A DNA stretch of 64,000 nt from Gammaproteobacteria bacterium (GCA_963422205.2 CAXMWX010000009.1:262721-326720), one strand, 5' to 3'; positions 1-11,394 are shown, numbered from the stretch's first letter. The notes: a model not told the origin generated them from the letters alone. Translations and numbers: made by a program.

Positions 1-1
1 C

Positions 2-2017
2 GTCAGCAAAGGAGTTGGTGTAGTATTCCTCGTCAAACACATTATTTATTTCAGCACGCAATGCCATATCATCTGTTACTTCGTAACTCGCCGCGATTTT
101 AACGGTGGTATACTCCGGCAATCTGAAAGCCTGATCACTAAAGAAGCCGTTTCTATCATCCACATGAAGTAAACCGCCAATGAAACTGAGTCCCCTGCCC
201 GCCAGTTGCGTTCGATGGACGACTTGAAGGCTTAATTGATTCGCAGGAATATTCAGCAGATCTGAACCGGCAGGCACGACAGTGCCAAAATTCGGATCAT
301 TGAAGTCGTTTTTGGTCTGGGCATCGACAAAGGCGTAGGACAGCCAGATGCTCGTGTTATCGGTGATGTTACCGTGGAGATCCAGCTCAATACCCCGGCT
401 GTCAGCCCTGCCTATCGCTGTGGCATTGAAAGCATCGTCGACCGTTGAAATGTTTGACTGTTCAATATCAAAGAACGCCAGGGTTCCCGCCAGCATGCCT
501 TCGTTCAAGGTAACGTTGACTCCCACTTCGGTTGATGTTGATCGGTTGGGTTTCAGGCCATTCGTCTGTGTTGCGCCAGATAGTGGGCGAAAGTTCTCGC
601 CGTACACGGCATACAGGGAAATAGAATCCGTTGCTTTGTAAACCACCCCAACCTGCGGACTGACACGGGTATCGGAGAATGCTGAAATACTGTTTGAACG
701 GCGATTAACCAACTCCTGCTCATAATCGTCAATGCGAACACCCAATCGGATATCCAGTGAATCCATTATGCTGATGTGATCCTGAATATAAAAACCCACC
801 GTCTCCTGAGTTTCAACTCTGTCGATTTGGGTCGCCAGATTAACAAGGGCTGATATGGGTATGTTTCCATATACTGGATTAAATACGTTGATGTCCTGAT
901 CAGTTGTTCTGTCTCGCAGAGCAAACTGGTCATTTTCAAATTCATCCGTATCTACACCCACGATAATGCGATGCCCTAACCCGCCGGTATTGAAACTTCC
1001 ACTCAACTCCGCTCGAAACACACGATAAATCGCATTGTAGTCACGGAAACGGCTGAAACGACCAAAATCCCCATTTGCATCTACAGCGCCAAAACCGTTT
1101 TCGGACGCATAACCTTCGAGTGAGGTCTCACGATAGTTAAAACCAAGCAGTGCGCTCCAATCATCATTAACATCATATTGGAATTCAACCTGATGGCCGA
1201 GCACCTCGGTTTCTATCGGGCCATAACCCGGTTCACCGAGGAAACGATCCTCAGGAATGAGACCCAGTTCGTTATCAATGGCGATCACGCCACGGTCAAA
1301 AGGAATTTCCTGACTGCTGTATTCCAACTCATAAGTCAGTTGGCTCTCATCGTTAAATCGATATGCAAAAGAAGGATTAACACCCAGTTTTTCAGTTTCA
1401 ACCGTATCCCGAAAACTTCTCGCATCTTCATAGAAACCCACCAAGCGAACGGCAAGGGAATCAGAGAGCGGCGATGTCCAGTCGATATCAGCCCGGTAGG
1501 TATCAAAACTCCCGCCTGATAATCTGAGGGTACCCTGCTTTTCAAACGTTGGGCGTTTTGTCACAAGATTAATGGTGCCGCCGGGTTCACCACGCCCGAA
1601 CAATGCGGCACGAGGACCTTTTAGCACTTCGACGGACTCAATACCGGAGAGATCACGTGGGCCACCAAATCCTCGTCCGGCGTTGAACCCGTTCACAAGG
1701 TAATTGCTGGGCAGGTTCTCATCACCAACAAATCCACGCAAGGCAAAGCTATTCCATAAGCCGCCAAAGTTGTTCTGACGCGCCACCGAGCCAGAGAGAT
1801 CCAATGCCTGATTGAGATCAATCGCCCCTGCATCTTGCAAAATTTCAGCGTCTATTGTCAGTTCAGACTGGGGGGTTTCCAGTGCCGTGAATTCTCCCTG
1901 ATAGGCGTTTCGTATTCCTTTAATGATAATTTCTTCGAGTTCAGACTGCGCCCGGACACAATTTATTGTAAGCACCAGGCATAGACTTGACCAGACAAGC
2001 ATGGTTTTAATATTCAT
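2..2017 (-). CDS. TonB-dependent (siderophore-receptor-family) outer membrane receptor, 3' end beyond window edge
   Basis: Not in the ORF track because no stop lies in the window. Manual translation from ATG 2017 (GAGGAA RBS): signal peptide MNIKTMLVWSSLCLVLTINCVRA, TonB-box-like LEEIIIKG, plug motif RQNNFGGLWNSFALRGF..ENLPSNYLVNG, and C-terminal NNVFDEEYY near position 2. Confidence 0.92.
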   Translation of the reverse strand, partial: MNIKTMLVWSSLCLVLTINCVRAQSELEEIIIKGIRNAYQGEFTALETPQSELTIDAEILQDAGAIDLNQALDLSGSVARQNNFGGLWNSFALRGFVGDENLPSNYLVNGFNAGRGFGGPRDLSGIESVEVLKGPRAALFGRGEPGGTINLVTKRPTFEKQGTLRLSGGSFDTYRADIDWTSPLSDSLAVRLVGFYEDARSFRDTVETEKLGVNPSFAYRFNDESQLTYELEYSSQEIPFDRGVIAIDNELGLIPEDRFLGEPGYGPIETEVLGHQVEFQYDVNDDWSALLGFNYRETSLEGYASENGFGAVDANGDFGRFSRFRDYNAIYRVFRAELSGSFNTGGLGHRIIVGVDTDEFENDQFALRDRTTDQDINVFNPVYGNIPISALVNLATQIDRVETQETVGFYIQDHISIMDSLDIRLGVRIDDYEQELVNRRSNSISAFSDTRVSPQVGVVYKATDSISLYAVYGENFRPLSGATQTNGLKPNRSTSTEVGVNVTLNEGMLAGTLAFFDIEQSNISTVDDAFNATAIGRADSRGIELDLHGNITDNTSIWLSYAFVDAQTKNDFNDPNFGTVVPAGSDLLNIPANQLSLQVVHRTQLAGRGLSFIGGLLHVDDRNGFFSDQAFRLPEYTTVKIAASYEVTDDMALRAEINNVFDEEYYTNSFAD

Positions 2018-2039
2018 GGTTTCCTCTATGATTATGACT

Positions 2040-2076
2040 AAAACGAAAAATAACCGCATCGACAGACGATGCCGTT
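2040..2076 (-). terminator. Intrinsic terminator/attenuator-like hairpin between leader ORF and TBDR
   Basis: Stem GCATCG (2056-2061)/CGATGC (2067-2072), extendable by AAC/GTT. On the minus strand it is followed by the U-rich tract AUUUUUCGUUUU. Confidence 0.45.
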
Positions 2077-2104
2077 AAAAGGTACACCTCATTTAAGGGC
2101 GCAC

Positions 2105-2461
2105 TTAAGATACTTGGAAGCGCTTACCTGGATTAGGAGGATCGCGAGGAGTACAGGATTTCCAGCTTTGCTCACCTGAGCTCGGCCGGGGGATGTCAAA
2201 AGAGATGCGTTTGTTGCGTTGGGCTTGGGAGTCGAATGGATGAAATAAGGCGACAGGATCATCGGAATCAATGGCGCCATTGTCAACATCATGTTCCTCA
2301 AGTTTGGGTGACGGTAACAGGCAAAATACGCAGGAGTGCTGCTGATGATCCTGGTCTTTATCATCATGGGCATGTACTGCAGATGTCGTTTGCAGAGGCA
2401 CAAAAGCCTGAAGCAAAAACAGGCAAATGCTGGTCAAGCATAGTTTTCTTTTGTCATTCAT
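2105..2461 (-). CDS. DUF2946/CruR/CutF-like upstream leader protein (signal-like N-terminus, His-rich, CxxC, C-terminal RxPP)
   Basis: Hydrophobic N-terminus, HAHDDKDQDHQQH-S-CVFC and late PRDPP. Lies 87 bp upstream of the TBDR on the same strand. Confidence 0.7.
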   Translation of the reverse strand: MNDKRKLCLTSICLFLLQAFVPLQTTSAVHAHDDKDQDHQQHSCVFCLLPSPKLEEHDVDNGAIDSDDPVALFHPFDSQAQRNKRISFDIPRPSSGEQSWKSCTPRDPPNPGKRFQVS

Positions 2462-2603
2462 TAGAGTATGACAGCGACTTTTATTTCTTCGCTGTTATTC
2501 AGGACGTGGTTTAAACCTGTCGTTTTTCCCGCACCAGGAAAACCGGATATGACGGTTGCAGGCAGCGTGTTTTCAATCATCGTTTTCCATTGAATCTGAA
2601 ATA

Positions 2604-2626
2604 GGATTGTTATATTATAACGTAAA
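2604..2626. promoter_or_regulatory. Zur (zinc uptake regulator)-like operator
   Basis: Perfect GTTATA-T-TATAAC (2609-2621) matches the core of the gammaproteobacterial Zur consensus GAAATGTTATA-N-TATAACATTTC. About 150 bp upstream of the leader ORF. Confidence 0.7.
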
Positions 2627-2714
2627 TTCAACGCAGATTCAATACCGCATACACCTTACCACTACGCTAAACCCGCCTGGATACATTCACGTAAATCCAG
2701 GACAGCCCCAGAAT

Positions 2715-9906: not shown

Positions 9907-10627
9907 CTAGAAGCCGGCGATGACCGTCACGCCACACAGCAGGATAAGCCCGCCCGCCAGGGCATGTGAATACTGATACAGACAGGGCGCCTTGATCCTG
10001 TGCGCCCCATAAAAACATACGCAGACGGCGGCTGCCATCGTGATTAAGGTGGCGAGCACAAACACCGATGTGACAAACGCCAGGGCGATGTAATTCTGCT
10101 GCCCTGCCGGATACATAAGCACTGGAATCAGCGCTTCGCAAGGACCGAAAATAAAAATAATAAACAACCACCAGATGCTCACAGGGGCCTTGTCCTCTTT
10201 GAGGTGCACGTGAGCATGTGCATGATGATGCCTGTGCGGATGGCTGATGCACTGTACCATCGGCATGGGCATGGACGTGGGTATGGGCCCGGTTTTTATA
10301 GGCGATACGCAGGCCATAGACAAAATATGCCATACCGAAAGCCAGCAGCAGGTATGAGGCGATATCGCCATGCCGGGCCTCGATCGTCTCCATTAACGCA
10401 AGGGCATGACCCAGGGCAATGCCTGTCGTGCCCAGCAACACAGAACCCACCGTGTGTCCGAGTCCGCATACCATGGTCACCGCCAGGGTGCGTCGCAGCG
10501 TCCAGCCTCTCGCCCTGGCCAGGGCAACAAAGGGAATATAGTGATCAGGGCCAATCAGGGTATGCAGCACACCGATACCCAGCGCGGTGATGGCCAGCAC
10601 CTGGATTTCAGGGGTCAACCAGTACAT
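9907..10627 (-). pseudogene. His-rich Ni/Co transporter-like (UreH/HoxN/RcnA-related) membrane protein split by a +1 frameshift (real or assembly error)
   Basis: N-half LHTLIGPDHY...GLGHTVGS...HTHVHAHADG. C-half HPHRHHHAHAHVH...IFGPCEALIP in another frame. Removing one base at about 10246 gives a 239-aa ORF. Confidence 0.8.
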
Positions 10628-10725
10628 GGATAAAACAAACGCGATCCGAAGGCGATTTGAAAGTTATCATGTTAGTATATCATCTGTCTTTTTGAGCACG
10701 TCTTGATACCTGTCCGGCCATATCC

Positions 10726-11394
10726 ATGATCGATATTCTGCTGCTGAAATTCTTCCACCTGCTGTGTTTTGTCTACTGGCTGGGTGCTGATTTGGGCGTG
10801 TTCTATTCCAGCAACTATCTGATCAAAAAAGATATTTCCGTGGAGTCCCGGCGAATTGCCGCCAGGATCATGTCCTGGCTTGATCAGGTTCCCCGTATCA
10901 GCATGGCCCTGATGCTGCCCACGGGAATCCACTTATCTGCCGCCATGGGCTACATCACGCTATCTACCACCGGCCGCATTCTGCTCTGGCTGATCTGCCT
11001 GGCCTGGCTGGCAAACATTATCATCTTATATGTACTTAACAAGCAATCGCTTAAGCACCGCATGGAGGCCATCGACTTCTGCTTCCGTATATTTTTGGTA
11101 CTCGGTCTGGGGGGGATTTCGATTTATGCTTTGCTGACAGATCGATTGATCCCGCCAGACTGGCTGGCCGTCAAGCTGCTGATATTTGCCTTGCTGGTGG
11201 CCTGTGGCCTGGCCATTCGAATCTTTATACGGCCTTTTACTGTTGCATTTGCGAACATGGTCAGGGAAGGCCGGACCGATGCGGGTGATGTTATCATGGC
11301 CAACAGCATAAGACGCTGCCGTTATGTGGTCATCGGGCTATGGCTTGGTCTGCTTGTGAATGCGGCCATCGGGATACATCTGATTAATGTTTAA
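10726..11394 (+). CDS. Conserved hypothetical integral membrane protein
   Basis: About 6 TM segments, N-terminal HLLCFVYWLGADLGVFY; first gene of a tightly packed operon. Confidence 0.8.
   Translation: MIDILLLKFFHLLCFVYWLGADLGVFYSSNYLIKKDISVESRRIAARIMSWLDQVPRISMALMLPTGIHLSAAMGYITLSTTGRILLWLICLAWLANIIILYVLNKQSLKHRMEAIDFCFRIFLVLGLGGISIYALLTDRLIPPDWLAVKLLIFALLVACGLAIRIFIRPFTVAFANMVREGRTDAGDVIMANSIRRCRYVVIGLWLGLLVNAAIGIHLINV

Follow-up and report, generated by a model that had tools for sequence, protein, structure and literature searches.

A predicted zinc-starvation operon lies at the start of the 64,000-nt stretch of DNA analyzed here (Gammaproteobacteria bacterium, GCA_963422205.2, CAXMWX010000009.1:262721-326720; hereafter the window). 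On the minus strand, a perfect Zur-like palindrome is followed by a remnant of the zinc metallochaperone gene zigA, a 118-codon leader open reading frame (ORF) with a late Arg-Asp-Pro-Pro (RDPP) motif, and a gene for a TonB-dependent receptor. We give a probability of roughly 55% to the reading that this operon is under two stacked controls, the zinc repressor Zur and a leader peptide that stalls its own ribosome. By analogy with the copper-responsive leaders CruR and CutF, the arrangement is probably their stalling switch in a zinc-linked form, added on top of Zur. Observed directly are the parts in their order and a leader family that co-occurs with Zur boxes and zinc genes. The elements of the locus are as follows.

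2614-2642, minus strand: sigma-70-type promoter-like site, TTGAAT (2642-2637), 17-nt spacer and TATAAT (2619-2614), 10 of 12 matches
2609-2621, no strand assigned (read 2621-2609): predicted Zur operator core, perfect palindrome GTTATAATATAAC of the form GTTAT-N3-ATAAC
2461-2580, minus strand: stump of zigA (COG0523 zinc metallochaperone GTPase), 39 codons with the P-loop GAGKT plus TAA (2463-2461), PF02492 E 4.7e-8
2105-2461, minus strand: 118-codon leader gene, stop 2107-2105, recognized by homologues and by the conserved columns C44, R106, P108 and P109
2461-2378, minus strand: putative leader export signal, residues 1-28
2374-2336, minus strand: leader His/acid patch HAHDDKDQDHQQH, residues 30-42
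2332-2321, minus strand: leader CVFC, residues 44-47, with an acidic run after it
2146-2135, minus strand: leader RDPP, residues 106-109, then a 9-codon tail and the stop
2082-2104, minus strand: first hairpin, directly after the leader stop, in both the minimum-free-energy and the centroid structures
2040-2077, minus strand: terminator-like hairpin at 2077-2051 (core GCAUCG-UCUGU-CGAUGC) followed by UUUUUCGUUUU at 2050-2040, from folding and a hairpin scan
1-2026, minus strand: TonB-dependent receptor gene, Shine-Dalgarno GAGGA 2026-2022, ATG 2017, running off the window start; Plug and barrel domains, TIGR01783 294 bits

The initial annotation had proposed that this region is a candidate two-layer, zinc-linked switch around a DUF2946-type leader. 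The CruR/CutF-like build and the association with Zur and zinc genes hold, whereas membership in DUF2946 is not supported. Every part it had listed was found again: the perfect Zur-like core at 2609-2621, which is a GTTAT-N3-ATAAC palindrome; the 118-aa ORF with its signal-like N-terminus, His patch, CVFC and late RDPP, each in its place; the hairpin at 2077-2051 with its U-tract at 2050-2040; and the TonB-dependent receptor with Plug and barrel domains. It had overlooked the zigA stump between the Zur box and the ORF; the 160 nt separating the two are not plain leader and hold this stump.

The leader and its family

The leader ORF had no Pfam or NCBIfam match. Searches of large protein collections returned two nearest homologues, P0001 and P0002 (50-52% identity, E ~7e-25), with the C-termini ...WKSCTPRAPPV and ...RAPPI. 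Profile searches added P0004, P0005, P0006, P0023 (from a Hyphomonadaceae metagenome-assembled genome) and P0024-P0027. Of the homologues outside this order, P0023 could be placed at a locus, L003; scans of genome and metagenome contigs for the DNA around the closest ones, P0001, P0002 and P0007, found nothing. When 301 genomes of the alphaproteobacterial order of this metagenome-assembled genome were searched, matches were obtained in 11, and reading of the loci yielded 13 His-rich leaders. The family has a common build, comprising a basic/hydrophobic N-terminus, a small-residue site (TSA, ASA or TAA) with HxH directly after it, a His/Asp/Glu-rich run, CxxC, an acidic run, a variable stretch and a terminal RAPP. 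Across the family, RAPP or RGPP stands 1-6 residues before the stop, and P0004, P0005, P0006 and P0024-P0027 end in RAPP plus 1-5 residues. C44, R106, P108 and P109 are invariant over 18 members, and the middle region is poorly conserved (26% mean column identity). The N-terminus of the window's leader consists of KRK, 17 hydrophobic residues and then TSA, as read from the sequence and not by a signal-peptide predictor. These comparisons indicate that the leader is a real conserved ORF. In P0026 and P0027, CAYF replaces CxxC, an extra Cys lies 13 residues upstream and the HDHEHEHE run is kept, which suggests that the metal-binding element common to the family is the His run rather than the Cys pair. 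A further protein, P0003 (1798 aa), has 15 separate stretches matching leader profile positions 13-39 (the hydrophobic/His region); this is probably a repeat or low-complexity likeness.

DUF2946 (PF11162), whose prototype is CruR (Bp2923) of Bordetella pertussis, is defined by an export signal, a CXXC, a RAPP ~3 residues from the end and 45 residues from CXXC to RAPP, within one or two; its members stand first in their operons, often before a TonB-dependent receptor (PMC9426467). The hidden Markov model check on 2105-2461 that had been proposed for this family was negative. The leader ORF gave no PF11162 match at E up to 1 (gathering score 23.7 bits), and its CxxC-to-stall spacing is 58 against 45. 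No PF11162 match was obtained in a six-frame search of the window's genome, nor in the five nearest leader relatives at E up to 10. Eight of 12 more distant alphaproteobacterial leaders had sub-threshold matches (9-18 bits versus 23.7) that reach the last position of the profile. In a profile-profile comparison (hhalign) of 22 His-rich with 7 canonical DUF2946 sequences, 9 columns around CxxC were aligned with a probability of 2%. The spacing is 55-67 in the clade of the window's leader and 39-47 in the 7 canonical members of the same genomes; three intermediates (L014, L017 and L020) combine a His-rich patch with a spacing of 46-47 and have the best PF11162 scores. The window's leader does possess the CxxC; C44 is invariant in 18 of 18 members, and P0026 and P0027 lack the second Cys. 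It also stands first in its operon before a long spacer (87 nt), with the receptor and transporter genes on the same strand. Its RDPP plus 9 residues departs from the motif and tail that define DUF2946. The nearest Atlas clusters were unnamed, and the nearest one with a Pfam name was DUF2946 at 0.93, which serves as a lead only. These results indicate that the leader belongs to a small unnamed family with a CruR/CutF build that is invisible to Pfam. We take the family to work as CruR and CutF do and consider a distant relationship to them possible; DUF2946 membership is not demonstrated.

The 118-aa product might instead be a working periplasmic metal-binding chaperone or buffer that hands metal or a metallophore between the receptor and the transporter, its proline end being non-regulatory. 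The putative export signal, in which an Ala-x-Ala-like cleavage site can be read from the alignment immediately ahead of the His patch, would suit such a protein, and His/Asp-rich periplasmic proteins are common in Zur regulons, an example being the genes beside zigA in relatives that we take to be ZrgA-like. Against this, what is most conserved in the family is the Arg-x-Pro-Pro 1-6 residues from the stop together with the first position in the operon, whereas the middle is unconserved and predicted to be unstructured. In an AlphaFold2 model built on the 18-member alignment, which is shallow and makes the model weak, only a helix at residues 2-36 was confident and residues 37-118 had no secondary structure (pLDDT 46-64); this is weak evidence for a leader rather than a folded protein. 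Furthermore, two members lie directly before zur, which needs no periplasmic partner, and RAPP and RGPP are strongly avoided in ordinary proteins, where they are among the most avoided tetrapeptides (PMC12992588). A periplasmic role for the finished product is accordingly rated as quite improbable, and the stalling leader is preferred.

Zur boxes and zinc genes at leader loci

The Zur palindrome covers the -10 hexamer TATAAT of the TTGAAT-17-TATAAT promoter-like site and is the only perfect GTTAT-N3-ATAAC in the window. Promoter-like sites number 5 in 1900-2800, compared with a mean of 1.7 in shuffles. The 2.99-Mb genome has 4 perfect palindromes against ~1.7 expected from base composition, and three of the four precede zinc genes: a zur operon, a ZnuD-like receptor and the window locus. 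The site on contig C12 lies upstream of a Fur-family gene (best NCBIfam match Zur, E 7e-33) with a ZnuA-like gene and genes for an ABC ATPase and a permease behind it (zur-znuACB), and the site on C7 lies upstream of a receptor with ZnuD as its best match (E 1e-135). The fourth site, G000:C4:10259, lies within a methyltransferase-like ORF (10061-11002, minus strand) and is probably a chance match. Given that it lies in the -10, that the genome has a zur gene and that its znu genes carry similar boxes, the box at 2609-2621 is real as a predicted operator.

The link between leader and Zur box was also seen in the comparison of loci. A Zur-like box was defined as at least 8 of the 10 positions of GTTAT-N3-ATAAC, and leader loci were scanned from -250 to +60 of the leader start. 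Such a box was present at 12 of 13 His-rich leader loci (at least 9/10 in 7) and at none of 7 canonical DUF2946 loci; in random 310-nt windows of the same loci, a score of at least 8 was reached in 11% of draws and 9 in 4%. The His-rich clade also has 3-6 His in the 22 residues before CxxC, compared with 0-1 in canonical members, and more acidic residues after CxxC. Downstream of the His-rich leaders, receptors of the window's type were found in L009, L012, L013 and L021, and receptors that are ZnuD-like by N-terminal sequence in L010, L016, L018 and L019; when L010 and L016 were scanned, ZnuD was the best match (~E 1e-82). Other receptors follow the leaders in L011, L014 and L017.

In the two alphaproteobacterial loci L015 and L020, a zur-type gene, with Zur as its only NCBIfam match (E 2e-20 and 3e-11), begins 12-25 nt after a His-rich RAPP leader (L015:1495-1944, minus strand; L020:1423-1764, plus strand). 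From this arrangement, the stalling leader may gate synthesis of the Zur repressor itself in L015 and L020. Genome G061, which holds the locus L003, has a second leader (L010:1471-1776, plus strand) with a single Cys and the ending GRAPPPRGPPVSCI; it precedes a ZnuD-like receptor from ~1913 with very long His/Glu-rich loops.

The window's receptor comprises 691 aa in the contig, contains 6 His and ends at C11:262662. It fits the TIGR01783 siderophore-receptor subfamily above the cut-off, with the best equivalog, FoxA, far below its own cut-off. It is not of the ZnuD type, and the ZnuD-like gene of this genome is the one on C7. It shares 49% identity with the receptor that follows the leader homologue in L003. 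Downstream of it, outside the window, are genes for an ABC ATPase, two DUF3526 ABC-2 permeases and an exported AstE/AspA-like hydrolase.

Receptor orthologues, with 48-100% identity to the L003 receptor, were found in 26 of the 301 genomes. At 21 of the 26, a Zur-like box (at least 8/10, -700 to +100) was present, 14 of them having at least 9/10; in control 800-nt windows from coding or downstream DNA of the same loci (n = 86), at least 8 was reached in 4 and at least 9 in none, with the reservation that intergenic DNA is more A+T-rich. An upstream ORF ending in RxPP was found at 9 of the 26, all nine among receptors of at least 56% identity. There was no leader at L047 and L053 (64-68% identity) nor at thirteen receptors of 48-53%, and L058 and L070 were broken or partial. 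The receptor in L053 (64%) has upstream of it an integrase-like open frame and a 10/10 Zur-like site, a context that hints that receptor modules move. The co-conservation that the initial annotation had expected thus holds from the side of the leader (box at 12 of 13 His-rich leaders) and is weaker from that of the receptor. Because the box is found at 21 of 26 receptors and the leader at only 9, the leader is an optional layer. These comparisons indicate that the receptor type belongs to Zur regulons generally and that the leader is an add-on in one branch.

The same distribution bears on the identity of the metal. A stalling switch of the same kind could respond to copper, as in CruR and CutF, or to nickel or cobalt, and would then serve as a cross-check against import of the wrong metal by a zinc-starvation receptor. 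CxxC is the proven copper-sensing motif of CruR (PMC9426467), the closest known family is linked to copper, and a His/Cys patch is not specific for zinc. By contrast, Zur-like boxes separate the His-rich from the canonical loci, members precede ZnuD-like receptors and zur genes, and P0026 and P0027 keep the His run without the second Cys of CxxC. No copper gene was seen at any His-rich locus; the canonical locus L008 has a gene that looks PCuAC-like on reading of its sequence. A metal other than zinc is considered unlikely for the window's leader, and zinc is the preferred ligand.

The zigA stump and the RDPP motif

The zigA stump starts at ATG 2580 and matches positions 1-33 of the 390 of NF038288 (E 8.2e-11), or 1-41 if stops are read through. 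A full-length ZigA/COG0523 protein has ~390 positions with a metal-binding motif and a C-terminal domain; only the N-terminal piece is present here. No other ZigA match was found in a six-frame search of the whole genome of the window, which is 98% complete, and ZigA matches at E up to 1e-30 were found in 6 of 40 related genomes, 5 of the 6 being above the family cut-off. In all six related-genome loci read, a Zur box of the same kind (ATGTTATnnnATAACAT-like) lies 30-60 nt before full-length zigA. Because the same type of box precedes intact zigA in the relatives, the operator-promoter-start layout of the window is that of a zigA gene. The likeness to ZigA/COG0523 (NF038288) covers the 39 N-terminal residues, P-loop included, and the preceding Zur box; the window differs in retaining ~10% of the protein, with 7 substitutions at positions invariant in the six intact ZigA proteins, one of them Leu to Pro inside GFLGAGKT. 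The stump is, by these comparisons, a relic and can serve only as a translated on-ramp for the leader. Its stop codon overlaps the leader ATG at 2461 (TAATG), the last A of TAA being the A of ATG. No Shine-Dalgarno sequence precedes the leader ATG; because of this and the TAATG overlap, the leader is predicted to be translated by restart after the stump.

In the related loci L035-L039 and L041, the Zur box stands before intact zigA in all six. In five of them, zigA is followed by a gene of ~220-233 aa and by one for an exported His-rich protein of ~190-219 aa, which we presume to be ZrgA-like; L041 has neither of these two genes. The window's genome has lost this post-zigA gene set at the stump.

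No leader homologue was found in 60 relatives of the window's genome, nor in 399 other genomes of the same class (up to 12 candidates scored per genome, with one genome unscored). No close receptor orthologue was found in 40 relatives, the best having 31% identity. Because neither the leader family nor a close receptor orthologue was found in relatives, the leader-receptor module was very likely acquired. The G+C contents are 0.45 for the stump, 0.48 for the leader and 0.48 for the receptor, against 0.56 for the flanking CoA-transferase gene and ~0.55 for the genome; the stump value rests on 117 nt only, and composition does not settle the origin. A rearrangement that kept only the first 39 zigA codons would have given this copy of the leader its Zur promoter. 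Either a foreign leader-receptor island was inserted into a resident zigA, or a deletion inside an incoming zigA-leader-receptor operon removed the body of zigA.

The stall motif of the window's leader is unusual in its family. Among 23 aligned family sequences, it is the only one without Ala or Gly at position 2 of the motif, where it has Asp, and its tail of 9 residues is the longest, the other members having 1-6 (tails span 1-9 residues over 10 loci). The arrest-core residues R106, P108 and P109 are present. RDPP is not unique to the window, because a second natural RDPP leader was found in L051 (G223:C34), ending ...SSTRDPPML-stop with a 2-residue tail, upstream of a receptor orthologue. 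In mutagenesis of ApdA and ApdP, Asp, Ser or Pro in place of Ala partly retained arrest and Arg was irreplaceable, and RDPP is itself among the most avoided tetrapeptides in bacterial proteomes (PMC12992588). Because of this published partial arrest and the natural case in L051, RDPP is best read, by analogy, as a weaker but usable stall motif. The distance from stop to receptor motif, 198 nt, is the shortest of 10 loci, while the distance from Arg to receptor motif, 240 nt, is in range; this is consistent with the loss of an older stop codon. A conserved stall-to-receptor distance, suggested by a first impression of 102-123 nt, was dropped, since the Arg-to-receptor-motif distance spans 237-302 nt in the 10 loci.

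These features could also be those of a relic leader. The family would be a switch elsewhere, and this copy would have lost its function after capture of the zigA promoter, with RAPP changed to RDPP and the stop shifted 8 codons downstream, leaving a translated spacer under Zur-only control. The sole Asp of the family, the longest tail, a short stop distance that fits a lost older stop and the visibly decaying zigA stump next to it are all in keeping with this, as are the 17 of 26 orthologous receptors that work without any leader. On the other hand, the signal-like N-terminus, His patch, CxxC and WKSCTPR are kept at 50-52% identity to relatives with no frameshift, as are the R, P and P of the stall motif, and restart at the TAATG overlap would keep the leader translated. 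A natural RDPP stands 2 residues from the stop in L051, and RDPP was partly arrest-competent in the published mutagenesis (PMC12992588). We regard loss of function as the less probable course, though one with an appreciable chance, and favor a leader that still stalls.

The proposed switch and its relation to known systems

From these observations, we infer Zur binding, coupled restart, arrest at RDPP, the zinc ligand, the switch direction and the output step of the following scheme. In the first layer, zinc-loaded Zur would bind the palindrome over the -10 hexamer and shut the promoter. In the second, ribosomes would initiate at the old zigA start, read the 39 stump codons, terminate at TAA and restart at the overlapping ATG of the 118-codon leader. 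The leader N-terminus would target the Sec translocon, and the ribosome would pause with Pro108 in the P site and Pro109 in the A site. At this pause, the HxH/His-Asp patch and CxxC would be 59-77 residues behind the peptidyl-transferase center; because of this distance, the His/Cys patch is expected to be outside the ribosome, at or beyond the translocon. Binding of metal, most likely zinc, to the patch would alter the lifetime of the stall, which would set receptor output. By analogy with CruR, low metal would give a lasting stall and turn on the receptor and the ABC-2/DUF3526 transporter, and high metal would release the stall, leaving the 87-nt spacer with its terminator-like hairpin unprotected from termination or decay, so that both are off. 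This CruR-type logic, in which the stall is on and metal releases it to off, is the most likely direction.

Several observations weigh against such a switch in the window. The PF11162 searches, the hhalign comparison and the spacing of 58 versus 45 all speak against membership in DUF2946, and 17 of 26 orthologous receptors lack an upstream ORF with an RxPP ending. The Asp in the stall motif and the longest tail could mean decay, and the activity of RDPP, known from two unrelated arrest peptides, was only partial. Copper, nickel or cobalt would bind to CxxC plus His as well. Transcription from a promoter-like site within the leader ORF (TTGACA-17-GATGAT, 2258-2286, minus strand, 10 of 12 matches) could bypass both control layers. 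The remaining points concern the spacer, whose fold is unremarkable (z = -1.4). When stalled at 2140-2135 (P site 2140-2138), a ribosome ends ~45 nt before the terminator-like hairpin, which makes direct occlusion of this hairpin impossible; by the coordinates, a ribosome at the stall or at the stop site does not reach it. Classical attenuation is not favored, as no anti-terminator or alternative pairing was seen on reading the sequence. Unmasking of the Shine-Dalgarno sequence as in CutF was likewise not adopted, the unpaired probability of the receptor site being 0.58 whether the transcript is free, stalled or with the ribosome at the stop.

The terminator-like hairpin is notable by position only, since a simple scan found 1 site against a shuffle mean of 1.1 per 900 nt. 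GC-rich hairpins without U-tracts lie shortly past the stop in most leader-family loci. The minimum-free-energy fold pairs UCCUC (codons 104-105) with the GAGGA of the receptor, a pairing with an ensemble frequency of 0.02 that is absent from the centroid. Over 12 loci, the predicted effect of the stall on receptor accessibility goes in both directions, with some receptor starts uncertain. In Rfam, the sole match was a sub-threshold one to ncS54, a Burkholderia small RNA (2046-2115, minus strand, 23.3 bits against a gathering score of 43, E 0.04); as it covers the two spacer hairpins, it is probably a hairpin likeness only. Of the whole model, the output step is the least secure.

CruR resembles the window's leader in being the first gene of its operon, followed by a long spacer and a TonB-dependent receptor, and in its CxxC and Arg-x-Pro-Pro near the C-terminus (PMC9426467); the exported N-terminus of CruR has a putative counterpart in the window's leader. 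In the CruR model, the transcript is protected from Rho for as long as the ribosome stalls, and copper ends the stall and turns the uptake receptor off (PMC9426467); as CruR controls an uptake receptor, a logic of "metal present = off" is expected here. The window's leader differs in being unrecognized by PF11162, in its spacing (58 vs 45), motif (RDPP vs RAPP) and tail (9 vs 3 residues), and in having 4 His and an acidic run around CxxC. Its context is zinc, with a Zur operator and a zigA stump, rather than copper, and its spacer has a terminator-like hairpin whereas CruR acts via Rho (PMC9426467). CutF of Rhodobacter capsulatus has an mRNA stem-loop between leader and target, as the window does, and would share with the proposed switch an exported nascent chain that senses periplasmic metal during a stall on a C-terminal proline motif (bioRxiv 10.1101/2025.02.05.636593). 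There, the stall lasts longer in the presence of periplasmic copper; it melts a stem-loop that covers the ribosome-binding site, and a detoxifying oxidase is turned on (10.1101/2025.02.05.636593). By contrast, the target in the window is an importer, and the predicted accessibility of its ribosome-binding site is unchanged by the stall.

The arrest peptides ApdA, ApdP and SecM have in common with the window's leader an Arg-x-Pro-Pro near the stop of a small protein, exported or predicted to be so, upstream of the regulated gene, and the 2025 survey of RAPP/RGPP upstream ORFs includes TonB-dependent receptors among the downstream genes (PMC12992588, PMC10951233). They differ in monitoring the Sec/YidC machinery, and no such metal-binding patch is described there for receptor leaders (PMC12992588, PMC10951233). 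The Caulobacter crescentus Zur regulon likewise has a Zur operator over the -10 and a receptor beside an ABC-2 transporter as a zinc-starvation module; the znuK receptor and the znuGHI ABC-2 transporter are its most strongly Zur-repressed genes (PMC4176598). Its DUF2946 gene, CC2720, has a predicted Zur site and heads the Zur-activated efflux operon czrCBA-zntA. In contrast to the window, the DUF2946 gene there belongs to an efflux operon, znuK is described without a leader, and no leader-peptide mechanism is considered (PMC4176598). Among 14 control genomes, DUF3526 matches were found in Caulobacter alone, which fits znuHI being of the DUF3526 type without proving it.

The word zinc is absent from the main text of the RAPP/RGPP survey (PMC12992588), neither zinc nor Zur is mentioned in the CruR paper (PMC9426467), and zinc is not mentioned in the CutF preprint (10.1101/2025.02.05.636593). 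No zinc- or Zur-linked leader on an uptake system was described in the literature searched, which was mainly open-access papers and preprints. For copper, metal sensing by a nascent chain that stalls at RAPP ahead of a receptor is already a published principle. New here are a longer-spaced clade that lies outside PF11162, the RDPP variant, an association with the receptor and the ABC-2/DUF3526 transporter, leaders before zur, and capture of a promoter via a translationally coupled zigA stump.

Gram-negative zinc uptake is taught as a one-sensor system, with Zur reading the cytoplasm. A wider reading, which we hold tentatively and at somewhat less than even odds, is that the His-rich RxPP leaders form a zinc-sensing nascent-chain branch. 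Periplasmic zinc, read by the leader, and cytoplasmic zinc, read by Zur, would then form a two-compartment AND gate on zinc-starvation receptors; the leader would also gate Zur in L015 and L020, and the module would be movable between lineages and re-plugged into a resident Zur promoter via a coupled gene stump. If this is true, the stalling leader would read metal outside the cytoplasm as a second, faster check, and the CruR/CutF principle would extend from copper to zinc. The leader family, with its CxxC or single Cys, its RAPP, RGPP or RDPP and its spacings of 46-67 residues, would be a compact natural set of variants for how a metal site talks to a stalled ribosome.

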